39,207 nucleotides of DNA from an uncultured Candidatus Saccharibacteria bacterium. Lineage in GTDB: Bacteria > Patescibacteriota > Minisyncoccia > Phycocordibacterales > UBA9973. Location of the stretch: assembly GCA_964369095.1 (NCBI GenBank), contig CAYJDV010000002.1, positions 1 to 39,207 of the forward strand. Reading direction: 5' to 3'. The notes beneath the pieces are model-generated. The model was not told the origin of the DNA and ran no database searches. It saw nothing but the letters and a program-made list of their open reading frames with translations. Shown in pieces: positions 1 through 39,207 of this stretch. How positions within the stretch are numbered: position 1 is the stretch's first letter; each line of letters starts with the position of its first letter. The position numbers were made by a program, and so were the translations under genes.

Positions 1-52
1 GAGAAGAAATAAAGAAAGCTAGTCAAGATGGTAAAACAAAACTCCAATTCCC
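1..52. repeat. 52-bp exact copy of the window end (39156-39207); circular-closure overlap
   Basis: Read directly: gagaagaaataaagaaagctagtcaagatggtaaaacaaaactccaattccc is present at both window ends. Unique length is therefore 39155 bp. Confidence 0.95.
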
Positions 53-731
53 TACTGGAGAGACAGCTATGAAGATAGAGGGGTTGGGTAGTCAAAGCGA
101 CTGGGTTGCAGTAGATTTTTCTCAATACAATACACCGCAAAGAATAGTAAATCGTACAACACTAAAACCAGACACTCTAAAGGTTGGTATGGATATTCAG
201 CAAGGTGGTGTAACTGGTGGTGGTCAAAGATGGATAATCACCGATGTCCTCGGAGATGGGAAGTTTAAGGCTGTGCCGAAAGACAACATTATTGGATGGA
301 GTAGTGAAAAAGAGCTGTATGAACAACTTGATAATTCAAAGAATTTCAGCGAAGTAAAAGGTAATAAATACTTAGAAGATGTGATGGATGATATTTTTGA
401 CAGAAAAATGGAAGCTGACGACCTGTTTGCGAAATACGACTACGACAAAGTATCAGACGAGCTACAAAATCAATATGTAAAAACAATAAAAGATAACCAC
501 AAAGAAGCTTTCGACATCTCAGGTAAGGTAGACACTAACAACCCCATATATAAGTTCTACGAAAAAGAAATGCAGAAATACCTAAATAAATTTGGAGGTA
601 CAAAAGTAGTAGACGATAAGGGTGTAAGTTGGATAGAGGTACAAATTAAAAAAGAATGGGCAAAAATGCCCGTGGAGGCGTTTGCTATAATTGGAGCAGT
701 TGGGCTAGCTTCCCAAAATAATAACAAATAA
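1..731 (+). CDS. C-terminal segment of the ~1320-aa giant virion protein (continues 35924..39155 across the circular junction)
   Basis: The frame of the ORF opening at 35924 maps through the 52-bp overlap onto the frame of track ORF 69..731. My codon-by-codon reading found no stop from 35924 to the TAA at 729-731. Confidence 0.85.
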
Positions 732-2715: not shown

Positions 2716-2723
2716 TTAATTAT

Positions 2724-2891
2724 ATGGAATATCACATTGCACAAATATTAGAAAATAGAAACGATAGAGGAAGAGTAAAAGTATTAGAGGTCGGTGCTAA
2801 TACTATTGTTCTTTCGTCGGGTGAATTTACTGATGAAGTATTGGGAATATTTGGTTTTAGCGAAATAGAAAGGGATTATATAATTATTTAA
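2724..2891 (+). CDS. Hypothetical small protein (55 aa; below the track cutoff)
   Basis: ATG at 2724 and TAA at 2889-2891, translated by hand (MEYHIAQILENRNDRGRVKVLEV...). It fills the gap between the fibre and holin genes. Confidence 0.4.
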   Translation: MEYHIAQILENRNDRGRVKVLEVGANTIVLSSGEFTDEVLGIFGFSEIERDYIII

Positions 2892-2895
2892 AGTT

Positions 2896-4235: not shown

Positions 4236-4414
4236 CAAAAAAAGTAACAAAGAAATGGTATCAAAGTAGAACAATCCAATTCGCAATTCTGACAGCAATC
4301 TTAACTGTTTTAATGGCGATTCAACAAGAAAACCCAGACATTGGATTCCTCGGTGTTTTGATTTCTCTAATCAACACACTACTTAGATTAGACACTTCAG
4401 AAACAATAAAGTAA
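4232..4414 (+). CDS. Small membrane protein (60 aa, two hydrophobic helices); lysis accessory candidate
   Basis: ATGA overlap with the lysin gene. Hydrophobic stretches TIQFAILTAILTVLMAI and IGFLGVLISLINTLL. Confidence 0.5.
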   Translation: MTKKVTKKWYQSRTIQFAILTAILTVLMAIQQENPDIGFLGVLISLINTLLRLDTSETIK

Positions 4415-4420
4415 TCCACA
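4412..4420 (+). promoter_or_regulatory. DnaA-box-like 9-mer TAATCCACA (1 mismatch), extends to TCCACAG
   Basis: Begins with the stop codon of 4232..4414. The TCCACAG end lies 29 nt upstream of the -10 at 4451. Confidence 0.5.
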
Positions 4421-4447
4421 GGTCAAGGGCTTTTCAGGTGTTCTGTT

Positions 4448-4456
4448 TGGTATAAT
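4448..4456 (+). promoter_or_regulatory. Extended -10 promoter element TGgTATAAT
   Basis: Read directly. It lies about 100 nt upstream of the ATG at 4557. Confidence 0.55.
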
Positions 4457-4470
4457 AGAAACGAGGTAAG

Positions 4471-4552
4471 GAGATTGGTGTGGGGTGGTCGATACCCTCG
4501 CCAACCTCTTTATCTCACACAGTTAAAAGTTTCTACGTAGCATAAACGTAGA
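4471..4552 (+). promoter_or_regulatory. Structured 5' leader of the transglycosylase gene (two hairpins)
   Basis: Hairpin 1 pairs 4471-4480 with 4499-4508, plus an inner helix ggg(t)/(a)ccc. Hairpin 2 pairs tctacgt (4532-4538) with acgtaga (4546-4552). It ends 4 nt before the ATG, and no SD is visible. Confidence 0.45.
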
Positions 4553-4556
4553 CCAA

Positions 4557-4964
4557 ATGGATTATAAATTAAAGTGGATATTGTTAATTGCCTTACTCGC
4601 AAGTATCCCCTTAAAAGCAATAGCAGAACCAAACGAGAGTATAACCCCTATCGTAGAAGTTATGCCTATCGACCCGTTATTTGAGAAAATAGCGTGGTGC
4701 GAATCTAAACACGTTTTAGACGCACAAAACTCTTATACTACCGCTGGTGGTGAGTTTCAATTTCTAGATGGAACTTGGAAATACTACGGGCAAAAGTATT
4801 GGGGCGAAGACTGGGTGAGTAAAGATAAATACTCACTCGATAATAGAGAACTAGCGTGGTATGTCTACACCCACTATGGTTCAGGCGATTGGGAAGCAGA
4901 CCCCAAATCACTTAACTGTTGGAAAGTAGAAATACCAAACGCAACCCATCGAAATATTTACTAA
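4557..4964 (+). CDS. Secreted Rpf-like (transglycosylase-like domain) muralytic protein
   Basis: N-terminal signal-peptide-like sequence (WILLIALLASIPLKAIA). IAWCESKHVLDAQNSYTTAGGEFQFLDGTW matches the AqCES...GglQF...TW transglycosylase-like signature. Confidence 0.7.
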   Translation: MDYKLKWILLIALLASIPLKAIAEPNESITPIVEVMPIDPLFEKIAWCESKHVLDAQNSYTTAGGEFQFLDGTWKYYGQKYWGEDWVSKDKYSLDNRELAWYVYTHYGSGDWEADPKSLNCWKVEIPNATHRNIY

Positions 4965-4969
4965 CAAAC

Positions 4970-4978
4970 TTATCCACA
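4970..4978 (+). promoter_or_regulatory. Perfect DnaA-box 9-mer TTATCCACA (inside a terminator stem)
   Basis: Read directly. Confidence 0.45.
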
Positions 4979-5000
4979 AGCGATTGTGGATTTTTGTTTT
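4972..5000 (+). terminator. Intrinsic terminator
   Basis: The 8-bp stem atccacaa/ttgtggat has a GCGA (GNRA) loop and is followed by ttttgtttt. Confidence 0.8.
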
Positions 5001-5011
5001 ATAATAAATAA

Positions 5012-5224
5012 ATGATTAACGGAAGCGAAATAATTAAACTACTAAATATAAACCGACAACAATTAAACTATTTAGTTTTTAATGATTTTATAATTCCCAA
5101 AATAAAAAGAAACTCAGTCCTGTCAGATTTATTTGATGAAAAAGATATTGAGATATTTACAAACAATAAAAGAAAATTCAGGAATAATTTATTAGCATTA
5201 GAAATAGAAAACGAATGGCGATAA
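5012..5224 (+). CDS. Hypothetical small protein, possible HTH DNA-binding (70 aa)
   Basis: Track ORF. The N-terminal SEIIKLLNINRQQLNYLV looks like an HTH, but this is a weak guess. Confidence 0.45.
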   Translation: MINGSEIIKLLNINRQQLNYLVFNDFIIPKIKRNSVLSDLFDEKDIEIFTNNKRKFRNNLLALEIENEWR

Positions 5225-5391
5225 GACCGATAAAATGTTTTGCAGTAATTAAAAACAATAAACTAGACGCATTTGAAATCTACAAAGACAAGGAAGTTGT
5301 TTTAAGCAAGGGTGAGACTTTTGTAAATGTTATAATTAGTGTTAATGAAAAAAACTTCGTTAAGAAGAAAATCAAAAAGTCCAATCGCTAA
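5215..5391 (+). CDS. Hypothetical small protein (58 aa), uncertain
   Basis: Hand-translated ORF (MAIRPIKCFAVIKNNKLDAFEIY...). It fills the 5225-5344 gap but overlaps the next gene by 47 nt. Confidence 0.3.
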   Translation: MAIRPIKCFAVIKNNKLDAFEIYKDKEVVLSKGETFVNVIISVNEKNFVKKKIKKSNR

Positions 5392-5803
5392 ACTACAACA
5401 AAAGCTAGTAGAACTTTCCCACACATACATAAGAGAAAGAGATAGCGTTATGGTTGGCGGGATTGCTGGTTATTGTTTTGACTGTGGGAATTTTGCAGAG
5501 GGTAGACATTTTCAAGCGGGACACTTTGTTCCAGACGCTTCAGGTGGTGCGATTTTAAGATACCACCCACACAATATGCACGGACAGGCAAGCGGTTGCA
5601 ATATGAAACAGGTTCAGGAAAGAGTAAAAATAAATTACACAATTAAAATGCAGGAAAAATATGGCATTGATTATTTTAACTTCCTACTCTCACTTAGGAA
5701 TAAAACAATTAAAGCAGATGAGATTTTCTATAACAAAATGATAGAACTTTACGAGAAAAAAGACGAAGACGCTATTGTGGAGTACTTACATTCCTTAGCG
5801 TAG
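5345..5803 (+). CDS. ninG: NinG-like recombination/nuclease protein
   Basis: CFDCGN...QAGHFVP...LRYHPHNMHGQASGCN matches the lambda NinG pattern (C..CG...qaGH...Rf...N.h.QC..CN). I prefer the ATG at 5345 over the track's GTG at 5339. Confidence 0.65.
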   Translation: MKKTSLRRKSKSPIAKLQQKLVELSHTYIRERDSVMVGGIAGYCFDCGNFAEGRHFQAGHFVPDASGGAILRYHPHNMHGQASGCNMKQVQERVKINYTIKMQEKYGIDYFNFLLSLRNKTIKADEIFYNKMIELYEKKDEDAIVEYLHSLA

Positions 5804-5885
5804 CTTTGGAACATACCTACAACGCCCCACAATGCGTTTTAAAGGGGTCAAAATAGCCTAATGTAGACTTTCCTGTAAAAAGGAG

Positions 5886-5911
5886 AAAACCCCTATAAAC
5901 GGGGTTTTTTA
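5886..5911 (+). terminator. Intrinsic terminator
   Basis: The stem aaaacccc/ggggtttt has a tataaac loop and is followed by a T-run. Confidence 0.8.
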
Positions 5912-5981
5912 TTGTCGGTTGTATCAAAATGGAGACAGCTTCATTACGCTGTTGAGAGGAAACCCCTCAATTATTATTATA

Positions 5982-6045
5982 ACACAAAATTAAAAAAGCC
6001 ATCAACCCACACTCTTGCAAAATCGGGCGAACCCATAGTGTGTTA
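5982..6045 (-). terminator. Intrinsic terminator of the minus-strand unit
   Basis: On the minus strand, catcaac...gttgatg and acacact/agtgtgg helices enclose a ggg-UUCG-ccc tip. The structure is followed by gcttttttaatttt. Confidence 0.6.
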
Positions 6046-6125
6046 ATAGTTGATGACTTAGCTAGTTCAGATAATGCTGATACACATATCACAAAAAGAT
6101 GCTAACTACAGAGCTTTCTGGTGTA

Positions 6126-6151
6126 GAATCGTTAGTCGCAAGACACGATTC
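6126..6151 (-). repeat. Conserved hairpin copy A (contains GTCGCAAGAC, 6135-6144)
   Basis: Outer stem gaatcg/cgattc, inner stem gtc/gac, 4-nt loop. The same 10-mer and the same architecture recur at 6749-6771. This copy is immediately 3' of the HNH gene on the minus strand. Confidence 0.7.
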
Positions 6152-6162
6152 GAATTATTTTA

Positions 6163-6555
6163 TTATACCATATTGTGGGGACATTTTCCACCATTTCTAA
6201 ATTTAGCTATATTGCAGTTGTAACACAATATTTGAAAATTATTTTTAGGAAAATTATTATCTCTCAACCATTTGTAAATATTTTGTTTAATAGAATCTCT
6301 ATGGATTTTGCCATCATTATTTATATGGTCTATGGTCAACGCCTCCTTCATTGTCTCACCGCAACAAACACAAATGTTACCGTATTTTTGAAATACTATT
6401 TGTTTTAATGGAATATCATATTCATTTTGAACCCCATGAACACAATTTTTACATTGAGCATGAAGTTTTTTTCCACCCCTTCTTAGTTTGTTGAAATGAT
6501 TTATTGGCTTAAATTCATTACACCTTGTACAAAATTTTTTACCATCTTTAACCAC
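6163..6555 (-). CDS. HNH endonuclease
   Basis: CxxC pairs plus LTIDHINNDGKIHRD...LCYNCNIAKF (H-N-H core). The track start is GTG. See the in-frame upstream extension 6556..6711. Confidence 0.8.
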   Translation of the reverse strand: MVKDGKKFCTRCNEFKPINHFNKLRRGGKKLHAQCKNCVHGVQNEYDIPLKQIVFQKYGNICVCCGETMKEALTIDHINNDGKIHRDSIKQNIYKWLRDNNFPKNNFQILCYNCNIAKFRNGGKCPHNMV

Positions 6556-6824: not shown

Positions 6825-8048
6825 TTAGTAGAAGTGTGTTATTCGAGCAACTTGACCACCTTGTGGGTCAAAGATGAACGATTCCATTGCTTGGATATTC
6901 TTGTAACCGTTCGTGTAGTGCCACCTGTCTGGTGCTGATGGTGTTCTAACCATTTCCACATAGATAGAGGTTGACTGGTCGACTCCTTGTCGTGAGTGGA
7001 TTTCGGTGATGAGGTGTTTATCCTCCTCAACCATCTCCATACGCTTTGAACCGAGTGTCTTTACCCTCTTGTCTTTGTGGTGTCCGTGGTTAATCAACCA
7101 GTAGCCAAACTTAAACGCTACACCTCGTGCTTCAGTAAGCATAAGGTTTGGGAGGTCTGTTATCTTAGCTCCATCTCCGTGAGAGTAGCCAATCATATTA
7201 TTCCCGTAAACCAAATACTTACGATGTGTCATTGACGTGTGAAAAGACACGTTTTTTGACTTAGAGAACCAACTAACAACAGCGTCAGTTAGCATATACC
7301 CAGACATAAAGTCATGGTTCGATGGACAGAAGACCAACTTCACTGGTGCGTATTGAACAAGTTTTTCAATGGCTTGTATGTAGCACCTTTTAGCAATGTT
7401 GTAAGCTTCCCACCACATACCGTCTGTGTCTTGCGGAGTTCCTGCTGTTGTAGTTCGCTTTGGTGTGTCGATGTGCAAGATGTCGTTCCCAACAACGAAA
7501 ACAATTTGCTCAGGAGGAAATGGTAAGGACTTGGTTATTAGTCCATCAATTCCCTCGTTGAAGCGTTGCTCTGCTATTTTAAGATTGTAGCTTTCGCCAG
7601 TTTCTTCTTTTGCAGAGTATTTGCCAAAGTGTGGGTCAGCGGGGTTCACGTTCCAAAGATACTTTCCGCTGCCTTTATATTTGACAGCTGGATATTTCGG
7701 AGCGTGCTTTTTCATTTCCGCAATGAGGTCATCACGGATTTCTTCGTAGGTCATTACACCTTTTTCGTTGCGTATGAAAATCGAAGCATTGTCGGTTTTT
7801 AGCCAACCATGCGACCAATCTCCAGAGAAGCTATTAGCCTCAAGTTCAACCTCAAAGGTGCTTTTACCACCACCAGTAGCTCGTTGGAATCGCTTGCGAA
7901 CATTTTCTCCGCTCAGTTTTGTTCCGAACTTTGTGTTCGCAATTTCCGCCAACTCTGCATAGGTTTTTCCTCCTCCGACCTCCTTATTAAGAGCGAGTAG
8001 GAAGCTGTTTATGTCTTCTTGCTTGCTCATTTTATTTGTGCTTTTCAT
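6825..8048 (-). CDS. Calcineurin-like metallophosphoesterase (Mre11/SbcD-type motif set) with an N-terminal HTH-like extension
   Basis: The motifs occur in canonical order: ADPHFG (DxH), VVGNDILHID, PSNHDF (GNHD-like), YSHGDG, NHGHHKD (GHxH-like). The N-terminus contains YAELAEIANTKFGTKLSGENVRKRF. The true start may be the Met at 8030. Confidence 0.7.
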   Translation of the reverse strand: MKSTNKMSKQEDINSFLLALNKEVGGGKTYAELAEIANTKFGTKLSGENVRKRFQRATGGGKSTFEVELEANSFSGDWSHGWLKTDNASIFIRNEKGVMTYEEIRDDLIAEMKKHAPKYPAVKYKGSGKYLWNVNPADPHFGKYSAKEETGESYNLKIAEQRFNEGIDGLITKSLPFPPEQIVFVVGNDILHIDTPKRTTTAGTPQDTDGMWWEAYNIAKRCYIQAIEKLVQYAPVKLVFCPSNHDFMSGYMLTDAVVSWFSKSKNVSFHTSMTHRKYLVYGNNMIGYSHGDGAKITDLPNLMLTEARGVAFKFGYWLINHGHHKDKRVKTLGSKRMEMVEEDKHLITEIHSRQGVDQSTSIYVEMVRTPSAPDRWHYTNGYKNIQAMESFIFDPQGGQVARITHFY

Positions 8049-18580: not shown

Positions 18581-18757
18581 ATGTATCTACCCGTCGAAGA
18601 AATAGACGACAATGATTTCTATCGAGAGAAAAGACAAAAGCAAGCTGAAAAAGAAAAGATAAGACTTCAAGAGGAATGTAAACACAAACACTTTGTTGTT
18701 AGATGTTCTCATTGTAATAGGGTATTAGGAAGTGAAATTAACCATAAAAGGATATGA
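18581..18757 (+). CDS. Hypothetical small protein (58 aa)
   Basis: Hand-translated as MYLPVEEIDDNDFYREKRQKQAEKEKIRLQEECKHKHFVVRCSHCNRVLG.... ATGA overlap with the chaperonin gene. Confidence 0.4.
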   Translation: MYLPVEEIDDNDFYREKRQKQAEKEKIRLQEECKHKHFVVRCSHCNRVLGSEINHKRI

Positions 18758-20187
18758 AAATAATAGAAACAAATATCGAAAAAATAATTTCTGGAATAAA
18801 CAAGACTGCTGATATGTTGTGTCCGACACTTGGCCCATTCGGAACAAACGTAATAATTGGTAGGAAATATCAAAAACCAATTATTGCAAATGATTCTGGA
18901 ACAATCTCGGACAATCTTGTATTTGAAGACGAATCAGAACAAATTGCCTCAGAGATAATAAATGAGGCAACGACTACGGCAGATAAAACAACCCAAGATG
19001 GGAGAACATCAACTGTCGCTATAATGAGACATCTTGTTAACTCTCTGTATAAAAAAACACAAGGTCTCCAAAAGGAAAAACCAAGAAAGCTATACAATAA
19101 AGTTCGAGAAGAATTAGAAACGGCTCAAAAACTACTATTAAAAGAAAAGAAAATTGTCAAAAAGGAGGAAGATTTAAAAAGTGTAGCACTCGGTTCTTCT
19201 CAGAATAAAGAACTTGCAGAGATAATATCTAACACCTTCTGGAAAATAGGAAAAGACGGGGTAATTACGATTGAGGATAATTTCAATCCAGAAATATCAA
19301 TCGTTAAAAAGAACGGACTTGAAATACCATTTAAAATTGTGTCTGACTTTTTAATTAAACAACTTGGACAATCTCCTATTTTAGTTACAACAACAAAGAT
19401 TGATTCAATCAATCAAATAATTCAAATCTATAATGAAATACTAGAAAGGTCTAAATCACAAAAGCTTGGTGTTTATAATTGGGTTATCATTGCCCCAAAC
19501 TTTGAAGACGGGGTAATATCTGAATTTAAGGCATTAGGGGGTGCGTTTGATATTATGCCAATCAAGATTCCTGAATCAAACATTGAGATATACGAGGATA
19601 TTTCAGCAATTTGTGGAACAAAAACATATAAGGGACAACTAGAACTTTTAACATTGTCTGATATTGGAGAACTAAAAGAAATAGTTTCAAATGAAAAAAC
19701 AATAATAACTGGTTCGGTTAGTCCAGATGAACATATAAAATCTCTAAAAGAAAAAGAAATTGACTCTCTTTACGACAAAGAAAGACTTGATAAAAGAATT
19801 GCTAGACTTAAAAACGGAATAGTGGTTTTAAAGATAGGACATAGCCTAGACCAAGACAGGGAGTTTCTTAAACTAAAGGCGAGAGACTGTGTAACCTCTG
19901 TTAAGACGGCACTAAGTGATGGATATGTTAAAGGGGCTGGAGTATCATTAAAGAACGTAGCAGACAAAATGCCGAAAGATAGCATTATCGCAGAATCCTT
20001 AAAAGAGCCATATAGACTAATCCAAGAAAGTAACGGAGGGCCTTTTGAAATACCTGAAAATGTAATAGATTCATATAAAACAGTTGAACAAGAAATTATA
20101 ACATCATGTGTTTTAGCAAGTAATATTATAAACTCACATGGCTCAATAGCAGATAAAACAGAAAAGTCAGAAGACCCTGTGATATAA
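18754..20187 (+). CDS. GroEL/Cpn60-family chaperonin, shortened (477 aa)
   Basis: [30 protein letters not shown] aligns with GroEL's [37 protein letters not shown] corresponds to [65 protein letters not shown] aligns with [55 protein letters not shown]. Confidence 0.85.
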   Translation: [477 protein letters not shown]

Positions 20188-25934: not shown

Positions 25935-26234
25935 ATGAATACAACCAAAAATAAAATAAAGAACGTTGTTAAACTATATTCGGAAATGTTTAGTGAAGAA
26001 TACAAACAATTCCAAAAGGAATCAGACGAAAGAAGAAGACTTGTACGAGATGAATTTGCCACAATTAAAGATACACAATACATTCAAAGGGCATTATTCT
26101 CAATCCCTGAAAAGTTACACGTGGCACTAATTAAAAACCTAACAGATGAAGAACTAAAATACTGGAAGACAAAAGAGTGTGCTAGATGGTTCGCTAAAAC
26201 ATTCCCAGTATTTACTCTTCCTAAAAAAATATAA
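25935..26234 (+). CDS. Hypothetical protein (99 aa)
   Basis: Track ORF. TAATG overlap with the next gene. Confidence 0.55.
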   Translation: MNTTKNKIKNVVKLYSEMFSEEYKQFQKESDERRRLVRDEFATIKDTQYIQRALFSIPEKLHVALIKNLTDEELKYWKTKECARWFAKTFPVFTLPKKI

Positions 26235-28558
26235 TGAAAGTAGCACTAAGTCTGATTGTAAAAGGAACAGATGAGGAAGCAATACTACTAGACAGATGTC
26301 TGGAGAGTGTATCTCCTTTTGTTGATGGAATATTTATAACCTCGACGCATAAAAAGGGTGACAAACCAAACGAATCAGTTGCTAAGATTGCAAAACTATA
26401 CAACGCAAACCTTTCTACTTTTGAATGGGTAAATGACTTTGCCAAAGCGAGAAACTTTAACTTCTCACAAGTAACAAAAGACTTTGATTACATTATGTGG
26501 TGCGATGCCGATGATGTGTTCAGAGGACTTGAGAAACTAAAACCAACCCTAGAAGAAAATAAAACAGTTGACGTGTTTGCTTTCTGGTATTTGTATGATT
26601 TTGATGAATTTAAGAATCCGACAGTTGTACACAAGAAAAGCCAGCTGGTAAAAAACAATGACTGTGTATATTGGGAAGGCTCACTACACGAAGACTTCGT
26701 AGCTAACAGAGAACTTAACACTAAGTTTATCGAGGGTATAGAACGATTACACTTAACAACACAAGAAAGATTTGAAGTTGCTAAAGGAAGAAACATAGAA
26801 GTTGCACAACACCACACAGAGGAAAAGCCAGAAGACCCACGCTCTTGGTGGAATCTTGCCAACTCCTATTTTGGAGCTGGAGAATATACTAAAGCTAAAG
26901 AATGTTTTGATAAGTTCTATAAAATGTCTCAATCGGAAGATGAAAAGTATTTAGTTAGACTAAGACTTGCACAGATTGAAAAGAGTTTAGGAAACCATGA
27001 TGACGCCGTACTAAACCTGCAAATAGCAATCGGAATGAAGCCAGAGATACCTGATTCATATCTACAAATGGGTCAAATGTATTCTGATTTTAACCTGCTT
27101 GATAAGGCTGAGAAGTTCTTACTACTTGGATTAAAAATGAAGCCACAGTATCACGGGATTATTGTGTATAACCCACGAGACTATGACTACAATCCAATGA
27201 TGCAATTAGCACAGGTTTACTTCAAGAAGAATAGACCAGACCTTGCTCTTAAAATGCTTAAGGGGTGTCTCGCAATCGTACCAGAAAGCGACTACATAAA
27301 AGGACTTGTAAAAGAAATGGAAAAAGAACAAACACGAGTGGAGGAAGTGGTTAAACTTGCTATCAAATTAGACACAATAAAGGATAAGGTTAAACTTAAA
27401 AAGGCACTAGACAAGATACCTAAAGACCTACAATCACACCCAAAGATAAACCAAATCAGAAACCAAAACTTTATTAAGGAAACTTCAACAGGTAAAGATA
27501 TTGCATACTTCTGTGGATTTACAGACCATGTTTGGAATCCTGAAATATTCAAGACAAAAGGCTTTGGTGGTTCAGAGGAGGCGGTGGTTAATCTGTCTAA
27601 GGAGTGGGCTAAACGGGGCTATAACGTAACTGTATACAATAACTGTGGTACGGAAGAGATGACTGCTGACGGGGTTAAGTACAAACCATTCTGGACATTC
27701 AACTCAAAGGATAAGTGGGACTACTTAATTCTTTGGAGACACCCACGCATGCTTGATTACGAAGTAAATGCTACAAATGTTTACGTTGATATGCACGACG
27801 TCGTACCGAAAGGAGAGTTTACAGAATCACGACTCGCTAAGGCCAAGAAGATTCTATTTAAAACAAACTTCCACAGAAACCTATTTCCAAACATACCAGA
27901 TGATAAATGTGAAATAATACCAAACGGAATGGACTTTGAATTGTTCAATCAAGACGTTAAGAAAGACCAATACTTGCTTGTAAACACTTCTTCACCTGAT
28001 AGGTCAATGGATGTTATGCCCAAACTATTCAAGATGATTAAGGAACGTGTACCCAACGCTAAAATGAAATGGTCATATGGCTGGGATGTGTTTGATTCTG
28101 CTCACGGAGATAATAAAGTTATGATGGCGTGGAGACATAAACTACAAAAAGAAATTGACGAAGCTGGTATTGAATCACTTGGTAAAATACCACAATCAGA
28201 ATGTGCTAAACTTTACCTAGAGGGAAATGTTCTAGCCTATCCATCAGAGTTTGCCGAGATTGATTGTATCTCTGTTAAGAAGGCACAGGCTTGCGGAGCT
28301 ATTCCAGTAACAACAGACTTCGGAGCATTTAATGAAAGTGTGCAGTTCGGGGTAAAAATACACTCAGATAAAACAAATGAAACTTGGGCTAAGGATTATC
28401 AAATGAGTTTCGGGCTTGAAGATGAAACTAAACAAAAGGAATGGGTTGAAGCGGTGGTTAAATTATTAGAAACCCCTATTGAGAATCGTGATGAAATGAA
28501 AGAATGGACAAAGAAATTCTCTTGGGACTTAATATCAAATAAATGGTTATGTCAATAG
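26234..28558 (+). CDS. Three-module glycosyltransferase: GT-A (GT2-like), TPR repeats, GT-B (GT4-like), 774 aa
   Basis: aa 1-190: ALSLIVKG...LDRCLESV...WVNDFAKARNF...WCDADDV (DxD at 26504-26515). aa ~203-352: TPR-like helices (WWNLANSYFGAGEYTKAKECF, YLQMGQMYSDFNLLDKAEKFLLLGL, LAQVYFKKNRPDLALKML). aa ~421-774: GFGGSEEAVVNLSKEWAKRGYNVTVY and YPSEFAEIDCISVKKAQACGAIPV. Confidence 0.75.
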   Translation: MKVALSLIVKGTDEEAILLDRCLESVSPFVDGIFITSTHKKGDKPNESVAKIAKLYNANLSTFEWVNDFAKARNFNFSQVTKDFDYIMWCDADDVFRGLEKLKPTLEENKTVDVFAFWYLYDFDEFKNPTVVHKKSQLVKNNDCVYWEGSLHEDFVANRELNTKFIEGIERLHLTTQERFEVAKGRNIEVAQHHTEEKPEDPRSWWNLANSYFGAGEYTKAKECFDKFYKMSQSEDEKYLVRLRLAQIEKSLGNHDDAVLNLQIAIGMKPEIPDSYLQMGQMYSDFNLLDKAEKFLLLGLKMKPQYHGIIVYNPRDYDYNPMMQLAQVYFKKNRPDLALKMLKGCLAIVPESDYIKGLVKEMEKEQTRVEEVVKLAIKLDTIKDKVKLKKALDKIPKDLQSHPKINQIRNQNFIKETSTGKDIAYFCGFTDHVWNPEIFKTKGFGGSEEAVVNLSKEWAKRGYNVTVYNNCGTEEMTADGVKYKPFWTFNSKDKWDYLILWRHPRMLDYEVNATNVYVDMHDVVPKGEFTESRLAKAKKILFKTNFHRNLFPNIPDDKCEIIPNGMDFELFNQDVKKDQYLLVNTSSPDRSMDVMPKLFKMIKERVPNAKMKWSYGWDVFDSAHGDNKVMMAWRHKLQKEIDEAGIESLGKIPQSECAKLYLEGNVLAYPSEFAEIDCISVKKAQACGAIPVTTDFGAFNESVQFGVKIHSDKTNETWAKDYQMSFGLEDETKQKEWVEAVVKLLETPIENRDEMKEWTKKFSWDLISNKWLCQ

Positions 28559-28962
28559 CATCAAAATACGAAGATATGGGTGTAGACCCATTACTAGCAA
28601 CAGAACTTATGGATTTACTCGGAATATATCCAGATGATTTTATAGACCAAAGAAGATTCGAGAAGTTTAAAGACGTTGCAAGATATATTGGTAAGTTTGA
28701 AAACTATCAGTATATGATTAAGAAACTAACATTGGCAAAGAATGTGGACAAGTTAACCCATATCTGGGAATGGTGCGAGTTGTCTAAGCAAAAAGCTGAC
28801 GCAGATAGTCAAATAGATTCTGTATCGCTTGAAGATTCTGAAATGACTGGAATGGTAAACAATCGAGAGGGAATGGAAAAACTATCTAAGATACAAAACC
28901 TATTAAAGGAAAACATAAACAAGTCTTCTAAGTTAGACGAGGAGATGAAGCTATATGGCTAA
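28543..28962 (+). CDS. Hypothetical acidic protein within the glycosylation cassette (139 aa)
   Basis: Track ORF. It overlaps both neighbouring genes. Confidence 0.55.
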   Translation: MVMSIASKYEDMGVDPLLATELMDLLGIYPDDFIDQRRFEKFKDVARYIGKFENYQYMIKKLTLAKNVDKLTHIWEWCELSKQKADADSQIDSVSLEDSEMTGMVNNREGMEKLSKIQNLLKENINKSSKLDEEMKLYG

Positions 28963-29857
28963 GATTGCGTTTGTGTGGCAAGGGATAGACGGAAGATATG
29001 GACACTGGCAAGATGGCCTGTGGCTTGCCATGAAGCACTTAGAGAAAGAATTTGAGGTAACATATCATGACATATATGAAGACATACCCGAGGATTCAAT
29101 CGTATTGTATTGGGAAGCACCTTGTACAATTAACGGAGAGTTTGGAGCTAACTATAAACGAATACAGAACCTACCAAACAAAAAGATTTTACTCTTTGCT
29201 GGTGGTCCCATTAAAAAAGAATGGGTTGATGGTTTTGATATGGTATGTGTAGAGAGTAAGTTAAACAAAGATGAGTTCGACGCTATCGGTGTTCCGAACA
29301 TAACAGCGTTTGGAATCAATGACGAGATATTCAAACCACTTAACTTGCCTAAGAAATACAAAGCAATCCATCAAGGAACTTCTGCTAGTTGGAAAAGACA
29401 ATGGCTTATGGCAGAGGCATTTAGAGAGGGTGCGTTGCTCGTTGGAAGATACCAAGAATCAGACCCAAGACCGTTTGACGATTCTCGCAAGCTGGGAGCT
29501 ACAATACTAGACGAAAAACCATACCCAGAAATTGCTAAGTTAATAAACGAATCAGAAGTGTTAGCACAAACATCAGAGTATTGGGGTGGTGGTCAACGTG
29601 CAACCTTAGAAGCTATGGCTTGTGGTGTTCCAGTAATCTGTATGACAGATAGTCCAAAGAATCGTGAGTATGTAGAAGAGAGTGGAGCTGGCTTAATTTG
29701 TGAACCAGACGCTAATAGTATAAGACGTGCGTACGATGAAATTATGACATGGACAGATGAAGAAAAAATGCGAGGTGTAGAGTATGTAAAAAATAAATGG
29801 ACAGGTAAACATTATTCAGAGAATTTAAAGAAAGCAATTTATGCCATCAACTCCTAA
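28955..29857 (+). CDS. Glycosyltransferase, GT-B fold (group 1-like)
   Basis: SEYWGGGQRATLEAMACGVPVICMTDSPKNREYVEESGAGLICEP is a typical GT1/GT4 C-terminal signature. Confidence 0.7.
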   Translation: MAKIAFVWQGIDGRYGHWQDGLWLAMKHLEKEFEVTYHDIYEDIPEDSIVLYWEAPCTINGEFGANYKRIQNLPNKKILLFAGGPIKKEWVDGFDMVCVESKLNKDEFDAIGVPNITAFGINDEIFKPLNLPKKYKAIHQGTSASWKRQWLMAEAFREGALLVGRYQESDPRPFDDSRKLGATILDEKPYPEIAKLINESEVLAQTSEYWGGGQRATLEAMACGVPVICMTDSPKNREYVEESGAGLICEPDANSIRRAYDEIMTWTDEEKMRGVEYVKNKWTGKHYSENLKKAIYAINS

Positions 29858-30446
29858 AGACCACTTCCAATATACGATTCAAGAATGGAGTAACGACCCA
29901 TTTAAGGAAATCCTAAACAAGGTTAAAGACATTAAAGTTGTCTATGATATTGGTGCAAACTCTGGCGGGTTTTCATTCCTACTTGATTCACTTTTTGATG
30001 ATTTAGATATTTACTGCTTTGAACCAGTTGGAAGAAACTTTGATGAACTTAAAAAGAATATGCCGAACGCCAAATGCCTAAAGTACGGAATCTATTATGG
30101 AGAAAGAGAATCAAGAATACTTTGGCGAGGGGAGAATTGTGGTGCCTTCTTTGTTGAACATGTTAATTCTGGTGAACCAAGAGTTGACATTGGGGAAAGG
30201 GTTGAACTTAGGGAATTAGAAGAACTAAAACTTCCGAAACCAGACCTAATTAAGATTGACATTGAGGGGGCAGAAGAAAATGTAATACCAAACTCTAAGA
30301 TAATTAAAGATACTAAATACTTAATTATTGAATGGCATCCAGACCACGTTCCAGTATTAGACTTCTTTAAAGAACACCTACCCAAACATAAGATTATTCA
30401 CAATATAGAAAACAGACAATTTCTTTTATGCCTAGAATCAGCGTAA
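29841..30446 (+). CDS. FkbM-family methyltransferase
   Basis: VYDIGANSGGFSF (SAM-binding glycine motif) and LIKIDIEGAEENV (the FkbM signature). Confidence 0.7.
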   Translation: MPSTPKDHFQYTIQEWSNDPFKEILNKVKDIKVVYDIGANSGGFSFLLDSLFDDLDIYCFEPVGRNFDELKKNMPNAKCLKYGIYYGERESRILWRGENCGAFFVEHVNSGEPRVDIGERVELRELEELKLPKPDLIKIDIEGAEENVIPNSKIIKDTKYLIIEWHPDHVPVLDFFKEHLPKHKIIHNIENRQFLLCLESA

Positions 30447-31057
30447 TCACCCCGTCGATACGCCCAGAGGGACTTAAAATCGTTCAAGAATGTTTAAAGA
30501 ATCAAACATTTACTGATTTTGAATGGCTTGTTGAGGTTGGATTAGGGAACAAACATGATTTAAACAATGCTTTTAATAAAATGCTCAAACGTGCAAGTGG
30601 TGAACTCATAGTTTTCTACCAAGATTACATAAAAATAGAGAATGACGGATTGGAAAAGTTTTGGAATGAGTATCAAAAGGATAAAAACTATCTAATAACC
30701 GCACCCGTTGGAAAATCAGATGACTATACTAACCCAAAGTACGATTGGAGGGCTTTTAAATACGAAGATATAGGCTTTCAGGGGTGGGAAATAGACTGGG
30801 GAGCTTGTCCAAAATCAATTCTCTTTGAGATTGGTGGATTTAATGAAGAACTAGATAAATACTGGTCGTTTGATAACGTAGACGTTGCATATAGAGCTTT
30901 AAAGCACGGGTATAAGTTTAAATGTATTGACAATAAGTCAGTCGCCAAAGACCACGACAAAACAGAAAAGCACCCATTTAGAGAATTGTTTAACCCTAAA
31001 CATAATAACGAGATGCTATCAAACATTGACAAAGGGAACCACAAAAAGTGGATATGA
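30428..31057 (+). CDS. Glycosyltransferase family 2-like
   Basis: The N-terminal PRISVITPSIRPEGLKIVQECLKNQTFTDFEWLV is typical of GT2. Confidence 0.6.
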   Translation: MPRISVITPSIRPEGLKIVQECLKNQTFTDFEWLVEVGLGNKHDLNNAFNKMLKRASGELIVFYQDYIKIENDGLEKFWNEYQKDKNYLITAPVGKSDDYTNPKYDWRAFKYEDIGFQGWEIDWGACPKSILFEIGGFNEELDKYWSFDNVDVAYRALKHGYKFKCIDNKSVAKDHDKTEKHPFRELFNPKHNNEMLSNIDKGNHKKWI

Positions 31058-34809: not shown

Positions 34810-35922
34810 ATGGCCTTTCAAGGAACAATAGAAAATCTAAATAAATCAACAACATCAGGAAGAAGAATAAAACCATCTCCTAAAAGTGTTGGCACACCAT
34901 TCATAGACAATGGCTCATTCAATATAAAAGTCCCTAGAGAAATTCCATCTCAAGTTCTTGGTTCAGACGTATCAATGGGAGACCTTTCTTCACTTTTTAA
35001 TCAATACAAAACAAGTCAACAAGCCATCTCAGATAAACTACTTACAGCGTCAGCACCAAGCACGGCAGAAACAAACGCAAGAAACGCACTAATCAATTTC
35101 GACCAATCATACCGACAGGGAATGGATAAAATCGAAAACAAACCTATCGCTATGGAATTTGTAACTGGTCAGCAAGCAGCACTTGAAAGACAAGCTGGAA
35201 TAACTCGACAAGGATTGGCAGAAACTTACTCAGCTCTTTCGGAAGATAGAAAGGCACAAGTTGATTCACTTGAAAATCAATGGAGCAGACTATCTGACAT
35301 ATTTAAAACTGGTGTAGACACAATTAAAACACAAAAAGAATTTGACAGACTAGATAAGGAGGCACAAAAACTTGATACAAGCATCATAACTCTTGATAAC
35401 GGGTCAACAATGCTAATTGATAACCAAACAGGAAAGGTTGTAAAAGACTTTGGTGGAATTAAGCCAGTCAGTGGTTCATCTGGTGTTGCGGGACAAAATT
35501 TAGCTGGATACAGAGAGCAATCTGCAACAAATGTTTTGAATTATGTTGATACTGCACTTAGTCAAATTAAATTAGGAACAGCTGGATTTGGAACAGACAC
35601 GCTTTCTAAATTCGGTGGAACTGGAGCAAAGAATCTTCGAGCGACACTAGAAACAGTAAAGGGCAACATTGGATTCGAGGCACTTCAAGCAATGAGAGAA
35701 GCTTCAAAAACAGGTGGAGCATTGGGTTCTATCGCCGTTCAAGAATTAACTGCATTACAATCTGTTTTGGGTTCTCTTGATGCAAGCCAATCACGCTCAC
35801 AACTAAGACAAAATCTTGAGAACATTAAGGCTCACTATGCAAATGCAATGAAGGCCCTTAACCAAGCAGACCAAACAATATCACAACCAAACGAAAATGA
35901 CCCGCTAGGACTTTTTAACTAA
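34810..35922 (+). CDS. Virion/internal protein candidate, Q/A/S-rich and helical (370 aa)
   Basis: Track ORF. It directly precedes the giant protein. Confidence 0.4.
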   Translation: MAFQGTIENLNKSTTSGRRIKPSPKSVGTPFIDNGSFNIKVPREIPSQVLGSDVSMGDLSSLFNQYKTSQQAISDKLLTASAPSTAETNARNALINFDQSYRQGMDKIENKPIAMEFVTGQQAALERQAGITRQGLAETYSALSEDRKAQVDSLENQWSRLSDIFKTGVDTIKTQKEFDRLDKEAQKLDTSIITLDNGSTMLIDNQTGKVVKDFGGIKPVSGSSGVAGQNLAGYREQSATNVLNYVDTALSQIKLGTAGFGTDTLSKFGGTGAKNLRATLETVKGNIGFEALQAMREASKTGGALGSIAVQELTALQSVLGSLDASQSRSQLRQNLENIKAHYANAMKALNQADQTISQPNENDPLGLFN

Positions 35923-35923
35923 C

Positions 35924-38900
35924 ATGGATAAAACAACTCAACCAAAAGAAACAATGGAACAATTTGGTGCAAGAATACGGGGTAAATACCCAGAGTATTT
36001 AAAGTATTCAAACAAAGAAATTGCACAAAAAATGATTGTTAAATATCCACAGTATGCAACCAATGTTTCTGACATAGAGCAACCAAAACAAGAAAGCTTT
36101 TTAACAAAAGCGGGAAAAACTGTTGCTGGATTTTTTACTGGGGAAACACAAAAACTCGGAAAAACTCTTGGGCAAATCGGTGCAACAGAAGACGTTACTC
36201 AATCACTTAATAAATCAGAACAATTAGCTGGTGGAGTTGAAGCTAATCTTATTAAACAAATACGACTTGCAAAATCACAAGGAAGAGATACTTCAAAATT
36301 AGAAAAAGAATTGGTTAGTATTTCTGGAAGACAAAGACCTGGTCAATTAACAAAAGAAATTATCCCTGGTGCATTAAAATCGAATCGCCAAGTAATAGGA
36401 GAGGTTGTTGGAACTGCGACAGAAGCCCTACAGGGTGGTGCCATTAGTGGAACACGTGGTCTTGGGTTGGCTAAAATCGCTCCAACAGCAGAAAAAGCGG
36501 CAATATCAAAAGCTCAATATTTAGCAAAACCACTTTCTGGAAGACTAAAACAAATCGGAACTGAAACAGTTAAAGATATTGCATCTATTCTTCCGTTTGG
36601 TTACTCATACGACGTTGCTCAAAATTTACAAAACGACAAAACGGGAATGGAGGCATTTAAACCAGGAATGGCGACCATCATGTCAACAGTTATTCCACTT
36701 GGATTGGGAACGATACGAGCAGGAAGACAAATAACCGCAGACACTCTTTCAAACGTGGTTGCACCAAACCTTTCAGGTGTTCAGGCGGAAGCGTACAAAA
36801 GATTACGAACTGGAGATGTTGATTTTAAAAATGCACCAACTCCACAAAAGGCACTAGAAGACGCTCGAATATCAGCGACAGCTTTTAAACAAGCTGTTCA
36901 AGAAGAATTTGGGGAAGGTCAGGAAAAACTAATTACAGAAATGACTGGAAAAAGAATTGGAATAACCGAGAGTGAAAAAGTAAAACTACAAAAAATTGCA
37001 GAAAGATTTGGGTTTTCTGACAGACTACCTCAAAACCCACAAAACATGTCAGTAAAAGAAACAATGGATTTAGTAAAGGAAATTAACTCGATTAAACCAA
37101 TTTCACAACTAGATGACCCATTAATAATGAATCTGAAACTATCATTGATGGATATTAAAAAATCTATCATGGAAAGAGCTGGCTCAAACGAGGGATTCAC
37201 AAATAAGTTTTCAACTATATATAAAAACTATTCAACTAAACAAAAGATGTTGAAAGATATACAAAGTGTTATAGGCAAGATTGGAACATCTCAAAATGGA
37301 ACAAGACTAGCTCTAAACCCAACACAAACACAAACCGCAACATCTCGACTACAAAGAATTTTCCAAGAAAATGGAACAGAATATTTAAAGGCGATTAAAC
37401 AACTTGAATTAGAGACTGGAGAAAATATTTTAGATAAAGTTGCGGCTTCTCAGCTTGCGAATATATTACCAAAGACACTAAGAACAGCCCCAGCGGGATT
37501 GGGGGGAATAATGAACGACGTTGTTTCGGCGGTAACTATCCCATTGTCATCACCAAGATTTTCAGCATTTCTAATATCTCAAATTGGGGGTTATGGTCGT
37601 GGGGCAGTAACAAAATTACTAAATGCTAATCCTAAAATACGAAAAGCTATCTATGATGCGGTTCATAAAGAGAATATGAAGTTCTCAGACGCAGTTGAAC
37701 TTTACGCCATAGACTACATAAAAAACCCAAAGATGGGTGCATCTATTCAAGACGTAAGTAAAAATCAGTTAAATAACCAAAATATAAGTGCCAATAATGG
37801 TAAAATAACCCAAACAAACACTAAAATTCCAACAAATATTGCCATAGATACAAACTCTACAACTAATACTATTAAAAGTCAAGCCTACAAAGGAGAGAAA
37901 GACCTCACAACAAAAATCCTCAAAGACCTAGAGGGAAAAACTACTGTATCTAAACAGTATATTCTTGACGCTACAAACAGAGGTGAACTTAAACAAGTAG
38001 AACGAGATATAACACGACAAGTGCTAGAGGATATGACAAGAAACAAAGAACCTTTAATATCAATTCCTCAAATTAAAAGTAAATACCCGAAACTTGAATT
38101 TGGAATATATGAAAATCCTAGTGAAATAACTTTAAGTAAAATTGTTGTGCCAAAAGCAGAACGAGGTGGTGGAGTAGGTACTTCTGCTATGAATGACTTA
38201 GTCAAGTATGCTGACCAAAGTGGTAAAAAGATAGTATTAACACCATCTACTGATTACGGAGGCAGTAGTGTTTCAAGACTGAAAGACTTTTATAAGAAGT
38301 TTGGCTTTGTTGAAAACGCTGGAAAAAATAAAGATTTCTCTACAAGAGAGTCTATGTTTAGATTGCCTCAAAAGACATATTCTTCCGACACCATAAACGT
38401 CAAAGAATTTGCTGATAAAGTAAAGAGTGAATTGTTGCCTTTGGAAGCAAAAACAAGTGGGTCATCGATACAAAGAAATAAAACATCAGAAGATTATTTA
38501 ATGACTCCACGATACGAAAATATCTCACTTCCAAGTGAATTGAGAGGCAAAATAAAAGACTATCGAGAAAGAATATACAACTCTCCGATTGAAACTAGTG
38601 CAGGTAAAACCCACTTCGGTTCAAATGCAAGAGATACAGCTAAAAACTACTTCGGTCACACCCGTATAGAAGACATGGCAGACAATAAAACTCGTAGAGT
38701 AATTGAAGTACAGAGTGATTTGTATCAGAAGGGGAATTTGGAGAAGGAGGGAGATAATTTCTCAAAAGAAAATCTAAAGAAACTAGGAAGTGATACTGGA
38801 CTTGGTGTATTCAACAAAAGTGACCCATTTAATTACAAAAAAATGGATATTTCAACATTGAAAGTTGGGGATATTGTCGGAGAAAAATATGGCAAACAGT

Positions 38901-39207
38901 ACAAGGTGAATAAAATACTAAATGACAGTGATATAAAAGTGCAAGAACTTTATCGTGGAAATGGTGTAAAAGAATTTGATTTTAAGAAATACACTGTAGC
39001 ACCTGAAGAATATCAATTAAATACAAAAGTCGGTGGAGATGCCAATCAAAGAAGTATACAAGCAAGTAGCTACCAAAATAAAATAAGTCAGAGAGAACAA
39101 GAAATATCTAAACTCCAACAATACAACGACCCTACAGCTCACTTCCGTATGGTACGAGAAGAAATAAAGAAAGCTAGTCAAGATGGTAAAACAAAACTCC
39201 AATTCCC
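35924..39207 (+). CDS. Giant virion protein, N-terminal ~1094 codons (runs off the window end, continues at 1..731; ~1320 aa in total)
   Basis: ATG at 35924, directly after the previous stop. I translated every codon to 39207 and found no stop. The ORF track omits it because it lacks a stop inside the window. It contains a GNAT-like segment at about 38060-38330. Confidence 0.85.
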   Translation, partial: MDKTTQPKETMEQFGARIRGKYPEYLKYSNKEIAQKMIVKYPQYATNVSDIEQPKQESFLTKAGKTVAGFFTGETQKLGKTLGQIGATEDVTQSLNKSEQLAGGVEANLIKQIRLAKSQGRDTSKLEKELVSISGRQRPGQLTKEIIPGALKSNRQVIGEVVGTATEALQGGAISGTRGLGLAKIAPTAEKAAISKAQYLAKPLSGRLKQIGTETVKDIASILPFGYSYDVAQNLQNDKTGMEAFKPGMATIMSTVIPLGLGTIRAGRQITADTLSNVVAPNLSGVQAEAYKRLRTGDVDFKNAPTPQKALEDARISATAFKQAVQEEFGEGQEKLITEMTGKRIGITESEKVKLQKIAERFGFSDRLPQNPQNMSVKETMDLVKEINSIKPISQLDDPLIMNLKLSLMDIKKSIMERAGSNEGFTNKFSTIYKNYSTKQKMLKDIQSVIGKIGTSQNGTRLALNPTQTQTATSRLQRIFQENGTEYLKAIKQLELETGENILDKVAASQLANILPKTLRTAPAGLGGIMNDVVSAVTIPLSSPRFSAFLISQIGGYGRGAVTKLLNANPKIRKAIYDAVHKENMKFSDAVELYAIDYIKNPKMGASIQDVSKNQLNNQNISANNGKITQTNTKIPTNIAIDTNSTTNTIKSQAYKGEKDLTTKILKDLEGKTTVSKQYILDATNRGELKQVERDITRQVLEDMTRNKEPLISIPQIKSKYPKLEFGIYENPSEITLSKIVVPKAERGGGVGTSAMNDLVKYADQSGKKIVLTPSTDYGGSSVSRLKDFYKKFGFVENAGKNKDFSTRESMFRLPQKTYSSDTINVKEFADKVKSELLPLEAKTSGSSIQRNKTSEDYLMTPRYENISLPSELRGKIKDYRERIYNSPIETSAGKTHFGSNARDTAKNYFGHTRIEDMADNKTRRVIEVQSDLYQKGNLEKEGDNFSKENLKKLGSDTGLGVFNKSDPFNYKKMDISTLKVGDIVGEKYGKQYKVNKILNDSDIKVQELYRGNGVKEFDFKKYTVAPEEYQLNTKVGGDANQRSIQASSYQNKISQREQEISKLQQYNDPTAHFRMVREEIKKASQDGKTKLQF
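39156..39207. repeat. 52-bp exact copy of the window start (1-52)
   Basis: Same 52-mer as positions 1-52. Confidence 0.95.

Follow-up and report, generated by a model that had tools for sequence, protein, structure and literature searches.

A predicted minimal GNAT module inserted in a giant protein of an SU10-like podovirus, a candidate virion-delivered effector

The window considered here, the whole stretch of DNA that was analysed, is contig CAYJDV010000002.1 of GenBank assembly GCA_964369095.1 (39,207 nucleotides, nt), assigned to an uncultured Candidatus Saccharibacteria bacterium. It encodes TerL, a portal protein, an SU10-type major capsid protein (E 7e-47), an SU10-type adaptor and fibre-like proteins. 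Between the tail-module genes and a fibre-like gene lies the open reading frame (ORF) of a giant protein, which contains a segment resembling the GNAT acetyltransferases; this segment and its carrier protein are the subject of the present report. The last 52 nt of the window (39156-39207) are an exact direct repeat of its first 52 (1-52), so the window is a circularly closed assembly of 39155 bp whose artificial ends are spanned by the giant ORF. Translation across the junction gives a protein of 1320 amino acids (aa), with its start at 35924 and its stop codon at 729-731. Continuity is borne out by the orthologues, whose alignments run through the junction, and by a related contig, L025 (IMGVR_UViG_3300043411_000305), the DNA of which matches both window ends contiguously. 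A sequence-only reading made earlier had put the protein at ~1320 aa, a length that holds solely because the assembly is circular and the ORF continues to 731. That reading had also placed a GNAT-like segment at 38060-38330, which does correspond to aa 713-803 of the ORF starting at 35924, and had quoted the codons cga ggt ggt gga gta ggt at 38162, which are present and encode R747-G-G-G750-V-G752. The identity of the segment stood; its end did not, as the conserved module reaches aa 815 (nt 38368).

The features of the giant gene are listed below, the term carrier denoting aa 650-703 together with aa 822-1320 (window 37871-38032, 38387-39207 and 53-731).

35924..39207, plus strand: giant ORF, first part, aa 1-1094 plus 2 nt; leaves the window end via the circular junction
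1..731, plus strand: giant ORF, continuation, with the stop at 729-731; carrier core block 2 (aa about 1041-1320)
35924..37870, plus strand: giant N-terminal region, aa 1-649; 10 relatives only
37871..38032, plus strand: upstream anchor of the carrier family, aa 650-703 ('...LTTKILKDLEGKTTVSKQYILDATN...ERDITRQVL'); abuts aa ~822 in relatives
37902..38441, plus strand: cassette comprising anchor, GNAT and first core helix; ~92% DNA and ~97% protein identity to L025
38033..38386, plus strand: inserted module, aa 704-821; not found in the closest orthologues or in about 87-92% of the carrier's relatives
38090..38368, plus strand: conserved, predicted minimal GNAT domain, aa 723-815 (alignments A1, A2 and A4; AlphaFold2, AF2; Foldseek; Pfam)
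38162..38179, plus strand: motif A, pyrophosphate-binding loop R747-G-G-G750-V-G752 (family alignments)
38276..38308, plus strand: motif B helix and strand, R785-L-K-D-F-Y790-K-K-F-G-F795 (alignment with solved GNATs)
38315..38341, plus strand: signature loop N798-A-G800-K-N802-K803-D804-F-S (β6-β7 loop), family-specific and nearly invariant
38387..38758, plus strand: carrier core block 1, aa 822-945; includes 38651-38730 (FGHTRIEDMADNKTRRVIEVQSDLYQKG)

The module follows the element order β(725-730), β(734-741), motif A loop, α(751-766), β(769-772), α(783-791), β(~796) and β(811-813). Within motif A, the arginine and the two glycines R747, G750 and G752 are identical in all of 26 aligned homologues and, in a set of 57, in at least 90%. 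An invariant T-P-S-x-D directly follows β(769-772), and the helix α(783-791) bears R785 and the invariant F-Y790-K before G794-F795 and a short strand; the last strand is M811-x-R813. Four residues of this region (Y790, K791, G794 and F795) are invariant in the family, and Y790 aligns with the tyrosine of the FYxKxGF motif in the solved GNATs 2vi7, 9ilr, 8osp and 1y9w. The signature loop N798-D804 is presumed to be an acceptor-site element. No cysteine occurs in aa 704-821, as read from the translation.

An AF2 model of aa 700-829, built from a 57-sequence alignment (pLDDT 84.3, pTM 0.74), shows the element order E-E-H-E-H-(E)-E. All of its top 50 Foldseek matches in the Protein Data Bank (PDB) are GNATs (probability ~1.0, E from 1e-3), with Ard1/Naa10, TacT, AtaT, GCN5 and Naa50 among the top matches. 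The best size-matched structure is AcrVA5 (6iuf, 96 aa; template-modelling score, TM, 0.73 normalised to the target, root-mean-square deviation, rmsd, 3.0 Å over 92 aligned columns). The N-terminal arm β1-α1-α2(-β2), which carries motifs C and D and forms the acceptor-binding side, is missing from the module. Because the conserved unit is only ~100 aa long and in solo homologues (118-126 aa) no more than ~20 variable residues precede the first conserved strand, the domain is called a minimal GNAT: by alignment and model, a truncated version consisting of the cofactor-binding half β3-β4-α3-β5-α4-β6-β7.

Taken alone, the segment scores weakly against Pfam. Acetyltransf_1 reaches E 5e-4 on the excised segment (20.8 bits against a gathering score of 20.7), and the other three families fall below their gathering scores: Acetyltransf_7 (E 7e-5), Acetyltransf_CG (PF14542; E 2e-4, 21.8 bits against 30) and Acetyltransf_10 (E 1.6e-3). 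All four GNAT families match the same residues, in each case with the C-terminal part of the model alone (positions 57-116 of 116, for example). The homologues speak more clearly. A search space of 5.8 billion proteins yielded 68 homologues at 45-70% identity, many of which have precomputed Pfam GNAT matches or the JGI name 'GNAT', and an exhaustive profile search gave 5017 clusters at E<=1e-3, 3074 at E<=1e-10 and 680 at E<=1e-30. A metagenomic protein, P0193, has a domain 52% identical to that of the window (E 4e-33) and clears three Pfam GNAT models, including Acetyltransf_7 (55 bits against 27) and Acetyltransf_1 (51.8 against 20.7). When PDB sequences were compared with the family profiles, GNATs made up 20 of the 23 matches to profile A2 and 49 of the 53 matches to profile A4, the best E value being 2e-4; the best NCBIfam match is rimI, and it is weak. 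Since several independent lines (homologues, profiles and model) agree, the doubt left by the weak Pfam scores is removed, and the segment is, by homology and predicted fold, a GNAT domain whose match goes beyond chance. The GNAT core that the sequence-only reading had seen in order is thus borne out in profile searches (Pfam matches; PDB profile matches that are almost all GNATs) as well as in structure prediction (the AF2 fold of aa 700-829 and its Foldseek matches).

Carrier relatives match the giant over ~650-703 and then resume directly at ~822 in pairwise alignments. Among 99 metagenomic relatives with both anchors, the slot between them measures 0-8 aa in 86; the others comprise five with 95-217 aa, three with negative offsets and five with single spanning high-scoring segment pairs. 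The IMG/VR loci with both anchors give a similar picture (n = 62), with a slot of 1-12 aa in 57 and of 51-124 aa in five. Of the ten relatives of the N-terminal 650 aa, five are full-length orthologues of the giant (P0327, P0328, P0331, P0332 and P0333; 46-68% identity over the region). The mini-GNAT profile matched none of these five even at E<=10, and the slot is 3-4 residues long in P0328, P0332 and P0333, the three with a clean alignment break (49-68% identity). The mini-GNAT is also absent from all 120 listed relatives of the C-terminal core and is present in one of 76 IMG/VR loci, L025. Other domains occupy the same slot elsewhere. ART-PolyVal, a domain of the ADP-ribosyltransferases (ARTs), is found there above the Pfam threshold in P0161 (L004 7397-9517; E 4e-11) and in L034 (ORF 2259-6452; E 1.4e-11), and matches weakly in P0092 and L050. 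The slot of P0147 gives a weak nucleotidyltransferase (NTase) match, and inserts of 120-220 aa to which no family could be assigned lie at the slot in L019, P0182 and P0121. By these alignments, the GNAT module is an optional insertion in a conserved carrier. Because the slot is shared with ARTs, its use argues for a macromolecular target, probably a protein.

The single IMG/VR locus with a GNAT at the slot also records how the module may move. L025 (5516-6391) aligns with window 37902-38750, and residues ~660-840 of the giant are ~97% identical between the two, a cassette of ~180 residues or ~540 nt. Outside this cassette the N-terminal 650 aa are unrelated, and the downstream core shows 25-80% identity. 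The GNAT codons differ by 20 synonymous and 6 non-synonymous changes (dN/dS 0.07), and the motif A changes in L025, G749A and V751T, spare the invariant positions. The pattern looks like a relatively recent recombinational exchange between phages. With a near-identical cassette in diverged flanks and a dN/dS of 0.07, the GNAT module is, as judged from the sequences, an optional and exchangeable cassette under purifying selection.

The carrier itself belongs to a large group. The C-terminal 500 aa of the giant are related to at least 278 metagenomic proteins (E down to 1e-101) encoded on contigs of 30-48 kb, none with a Pfam domain in this part, and the carrier core occurs at 76 IMG/VR loci. 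No Pfam family was found for it across 72 members, nor a PHROG or NCBIfam family, and no Pfam LPD or MuF domain was detected in the carrier by sequence. The N-terminal region (aa 1-649) likewise matched no Pfam, PHROG or NCBIfam family, which leaves the GNAT as the sole recognisable enzyme domain in the giant, next to a ~550-aa core with invariant H, R, E and D residues that has no family. The sequence-only reading had pointed to a second conserved-looking block after the GNAT core, at 38651-38730. Its strong conservation is confirmed, with R914, E916, D917, R924, R925, E928 and Q930 invariant in 72 sequences; its assignment to the acetyltransferase is rejected, as it is the most conserved motif of the carrier core and occurs in relatives that have no GNAT. 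Further invariant core residues include H897, Y1067, R1075 and E1079/1080, and this pattern of conservation suggests an enzyme.

An AF2 model of the carrier core (pLDDT 78.5) gave no significant PDB match with Foldseek. The matches returned were almost only GNATs (E 0.2-1, rmsd ~12 Å), and a second GNAT is not claimed: hhalign of the core against the mini-GNAT gave a probability of 0.2%, and the PDB profile search with the core was empty. The stretch 'HF...NYFGHTRIED...TRRVIEV' weakly resembles the N-terminal end of a methyltransferase-like chain (9xab, E 0.15), which was put down to chance. In BFVD, the core model matches proteins of 760-1400 aa from uncultured phages (E 3e-6 to 1e-3), and several of the BFVD matches are named as LPD-, GP88- or ART-PolyVal-containing ('large polyvalent protein', E 3e-6 to 1e-2). 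Some relatives of the carrier bear SLT or cell-wall-hydrolase (Hydrolase_2) domains. No match to the carrier was found among the cultured phages of INPHARED, where the GNAT segment alone has matches.

The mini-GNAT family extends far beyond this carrier. In forty of its top 150 clusters the module lies within a protein of 1000-6086 aa. Giants of cultured phages contain it as well: the 3764-aa 'DarB-like' giant of Serratia phage Parlo combines SLT, helicase, methyltransferase, mini-GNAT and LPD39; in Vibrio phage 1.185.O the mini-GNAT lies in a 2514-aa structural-module protein, and in Klebsiella phage ZX1 (vB_KpnP_ZX1) in a 'PLxRFG' protein. A further GNAT-bearing giant belongs to Pseudomonas phage Skulduggery. 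The window giant has the ~100-aa module alone in common with these giants. Plasmid-borne homologues in RefSeq already carry the name 'GNAT family N-acetyltransferase'. The family is found in phages of Proteobacteria (including Alphaproteobacteria), Firmicutes (including Bacillus) and Acidobacteria and on actinobacterial plasmids; because it is spread over so many phyla, its distribution argues for a broadly conserved target.

Two members of the family have unusual architectures. The metagenomic P0193 (2136 aa) contains up to three mini-GNAT-like copies (782-822, 1156-1248 and 1288-1352), together with LPD23 and ART-PolyVal matched in four stretches, an extreme polyvalent architecture. Agrobacterium jumbo phage Atu_ph07 (L003 5893-6981) encodes a 362-aa stand-alone protein with an N-terminal mini-GNAT in which motif A is degenerate ('P----GEGTGS' instead of PKxxRGxGxGS), within a run of about ten similar-sized hypothetical genes. 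The homology of the Atu_ph07 protein to the giant runs to aa 944; beyond the GNAT it is gapped and of low identity, and a two-domain unit is not supported.

The gene context bears on whether the carrier is a particle protein. The 370-aa neighbour immediately upstream of the giant gene has a weak similarity to a PHROG whose annotation reads 'released from the phage upon host infection'.

34810..35922, plus strand: upstream neighbour, 370 aa; phrog_2534 (E 5e-4) and phrog_24864 (E 1e-22, function unknown)

Locus L006 has the layout of the same podovirus type, with a tailspike, an SU10 adaptor, three to four large unannotated proteins including the carrier, and an amidase. In L004 the carrier gene comes after the terminase and a 670-aa putative portal. 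Twelve GTDB contigs from metagenome-assembled genomes (MAGs) contain the carrier core, and six of them (L088, L089, L094, L095, L097 and L098) are binned as Saccharibacteria, Patescibacteria or Shapirobacteria; several are 21-43 kb long, the size of a phage genome. The podovirus group may therefore infect bacteria of the candidate phyla radiation (CPR), on the basis of binning, which is not proof of host.

Other genes of the window can be recorded alongside. A glycosyltransferase (GT)/methyltransferase island at 26234-31057, which interrupts the structural module between the gene of the major capsid protein and that of the adaptor, encodes a 774-aa GT2-TPR-GT4/GT1 protein, a GT1 protein, an FkbM-type methyltransferase and a 209-aa ORF, and possibly serves virion glycosylation. 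At 18754-20187 lies a gene for a Cpn60/TCP1-like chaperonin, of which the N-terminal half alone matches the Pfam model. A Cpn10 and a Cpn60 gene stand just upstream of the terminase in L004 (846-2674), and because this relative carries both, a phage chaperonin appears to be a lineage trait. The 300-aa protein encoded at 3333-4235, just after the fibre gene, has an N-terminal HExxH (RHELCHA) and a C-terminal DUF5675 (E 2e-27) and is a candidate enzyme of lysis or the cell wall. Of the large ORFs of the window, that at 6825-8048 alone lies on the minus strand; it encodes an SbcD/Mre11-like 'DNA repair exonuclease' (phrog_704, E 6e-62). No ORF of the size of a DNA polymerase was found in the genome.

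Among known systems, the closest precedent is the set of GNATs of a RimI-like clade found in phage polyvalent proteins, typically beside ART domains and with solo phage versions; their predicted role is to modify proteins of the host as the phage enters (Iyer et al., 2017, PMC5512222). The idea was restated with Rac of phiKMV-like phages as a functional analogy (Iyer et al., 2021, PMC7824862), and in cobaviruses a GNAT gene stands beside the genes of internal virion proteins (PMC6775973). Like the GNATs described in 2017, that of the window lies inside a very large phage protein encoded with late and structural genes, here 1320 aa between tail genes and a fibre gene. Its family shares further traits with them, since the module joins ART-PolyVal and LPD23 in P0193, rimI is its best, if weak, NCBIfam match, and solo versions, such as P0058 and P0065, exist. 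The domain shuffling of polyvalent proteins is likewise seen, the slot being empty in most relatives, filled by a GNAT here and in L025, and by ART-PolyVal in P0161 and L034. In contrast to the proteins of 2017, no Pfam LPD or MuF domain, nor any other named one, is found in the window carrier, and the GNAT family of the window, possibly the one of 2017 (exemplar BAR32501.1), is far wider than the gammaproteobacterial range then reported. The concept of GNATs in polyvalent, virion-delivered proteins is already published, and the present finding extends it rather than overturning it.

Comparison with other small GNATs concerns what such a domain can do. The second-best PDB profile match of the module is the Staphylococcus aureus protein 1r57 (E 8e-4), which with 2h5m represents PF14542 (102 aa) and resembles the module in its size class and in having no N-terminal arm. 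Members of PF14542 have a conserved cysteine near the acetyl group. The window module, unlike them, stays below the gathering score and has no cysteine, and it is not a member by sequence. AcrVA5 is a 92-aa GNAT that is catalytically active (PMC10799925 and work cited there). It and AcrVA5Bsp are minimal GNATs of phages and mobile genetic elements (~92-100 aa) in the same size class as the module, and AcrVA5 is the example that so small a GNAT can work as an anti-defence enzyme. There is, in contrast, no sequence homology detectable between AcrVA5 and the module (AcrVA5 is absent from the PDB profile matches even at E<=10, and identity in the structural alignment is 17-18%). Whereas AcrVA5 is a free early protein, the window domain lies within a giant, and nothing points to Cas12a, which enzymes of the AcrVA5 type acetylate, blocking type V-A CRISPR.

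The notion of a protein-modifying enzyme that acts on host machinery at or after DNA entry also connects the window giant with T4 Alt, Rac and phi24B gp47; this likeness is one of concept, and homology is not demonstrated. Rac comes from an early gene and is not known to be part of the virion. T4 Alt is an ART packaged in the head, and Rac of LUZ19 is an acetyltransferase acting on the alpha subunit of RNA polymerase (PMC5512222, PMC7824862). The comparable polyvalent giant gp47 of the podovirus phi24B was detected in virions by mass spectrometry (bioRxiv 10.64898/2026.04.10.717836).

The reading given most weight here, with a rough probability of 0.6, is that aa ~704-821 form an accessory minimal GNAT acyltransferase, injected as part of a virion carrier and acetylating a host macromolecule at the start of infection. 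The carrier would be packaged in the virion of an SU10-like podovirus with the module in its cargo slot, and would be ejected with the phage DNA into the cell. There, using host acetyl-CoA, the module would acetylate a conserved host macromolecule as infection begins; a defence protein, a component of transcription or translation, or a charged tRNA are possible targets. That the module is catalytic, that the carrier is packaged and ejected, and what kind of target is modified are all inferred. The acetyltransferase effector proposed by the sequence-only reading finds support on several sides: the module is an optional insertion at a slot where relatives carry ART-PolyVal, it is under purifying selection, its gene stands among tail and putative internal-protein genes of an SU10-like podovirus, the carrier model matches the structures of large polyvalent proteins in BFVD, and carrier relatives bear SLT or cell-wall-hydrolase domains. 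Other observations weigh against it. The Foldseek E values of the module are modest (~1e-3), with TM scores of 0.4-0.56 by query length, and the Pfam scores of the window domain itself lie at or below the gathering thresholds. Catalysis is not guaranteed, because the acceptor-shaping N-terminal arm is missing, and no general-base residue could be assigned in the module. The location of the carrier in the particle is uncertain, because in L004 its gene follows the putative portal and not tail genes. Ejection proteins that insert into membranes typically have strongly hydrophobic segments, and none was found in the giant: over every stretch of 19 residues the Kyte-Doolittle mean stays at or below 1.41, and membrane-spanning segments are accordingly unsupported. 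On balance, an injected effector is credible but unproven, and of a kind already described for phage polyvalent proteins.

The rival explanations differ in how much of this scheme they give up. That the RxxGxG motif arose by chance in a low-complexity region of a structural protein could be argued from its shortness and from the sub-threshold scores of individual Pfam models in the window; a module of ~100 aa with thousands of homologues at E<=1e-10 and concordant profile, family and structure evidence refutes this and leaves it a negligible probability. A genuine GNAT fold could still be non-catalytic, either as a pseudo-enzyme that binds CoA or acyl-CoA in a regulatory or docking role or as a structural or packaging module. 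PanZ offers the model: by means of bound acetyl-CoA it binds PanD and leaves it unacetylated. The Foldseek matches of the module include PanZ (4crz; TM 0.51, rmsd 2.9 Å), which would suit this explanation, as would the missing acceptor-side arm and the want of an identifiable general base. It is nevertheless judged unlikely, since the family does not vary at the tyrosine that corresponds to the general acid in many GNATs, nor at polar residues beyond the CoA loop (S775, D777, R785, K791, N798, N802, K803, D804 and R813), the solo versions of 118-126 aa argue for autonomous function, and AcrVA5 in the same size class is active (PMC10799925).

An active enzyme need not act on a cytoplasmic host or defence target. 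It could acylate the phage's own material (virion proteins or DNA) or the envelope or peptidoglycan, as might be read from the helicase and methyltransferase that adjoin the module in the Parlo 'DarB-like' protein, from the peptidoglycan hydrolases of carrier relatives and from the virion decoration that the glycosyltransferase/methyltransferase island of the window suggests. The ART-PolyVal domains at the same slot speak against such substrates, polyvalent ARTs being classed as protein-modifying (Iyer et al., 2017, PMC5512222), and so do the closest profiles, which are of protein- or tRNA-acetylating GNATs (RimI; Naa10/Ard1, Naa50, TacT and AtaT) and show no resemblance to the Mom-type DNA-modifying GNATs of the literature; this explanation seems no more probable than a pseudo-enzyme. 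Least probable of those that accept a GNAT, and quite improbable in itself, is that the giant is not delivered by the virion at all and serves as a late intracellular protein, for example an assembly factor, with the GNAT acting late in the producing cell. The weak hydrophobic segments and the absence of a Pfam LPD or MuF domain by sequence would be in keeping with this. The gene stands in the structural module, relatives have peptidoglycan-hydrolase fusions, the core model matches polyvalent proteins in BFVD, and phi24B gp47 sets a precedent; all of this points the other way.

Returning to delivery by the virion, a more specific version can be put forward tentatively, as a possibility that is less than even. 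The carrier would represent an undescribed family of virion proteins with a cargo slot flanked by recombination arms, and the mini-GNAT would be an acetyltransferase akin to AcrVA5 that, on entry, puts a broadly conserved defence or core component of the host out of action. GNAT, ART-PolyVal and perhaps NTase cassettes may then be swapped at this slot among SU10-like podoviruses, which possibly infect Patescibacteria or Saccharibacteria.

The present analysis adds the minimal form of the domain, the extent of its family (>3000 clusters) and the slot architecture in an unannotated carrier family. If active and injected, the module would be a member of an abundant, experimentally untouched family of phage effectors. 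As this family includes giants from cultured phages of Serratia, Pseudomonas, Klebsiella, Vibrio and Bacillus, tractable systems could reveal its target. The slot, empty in most relatives, holding a GNAT in two phages and an ART in others, amounts to a natural experiment. Its comparison can show the exchange of entry-stage effectors among phages and provides a handle for mining further cargo domains.

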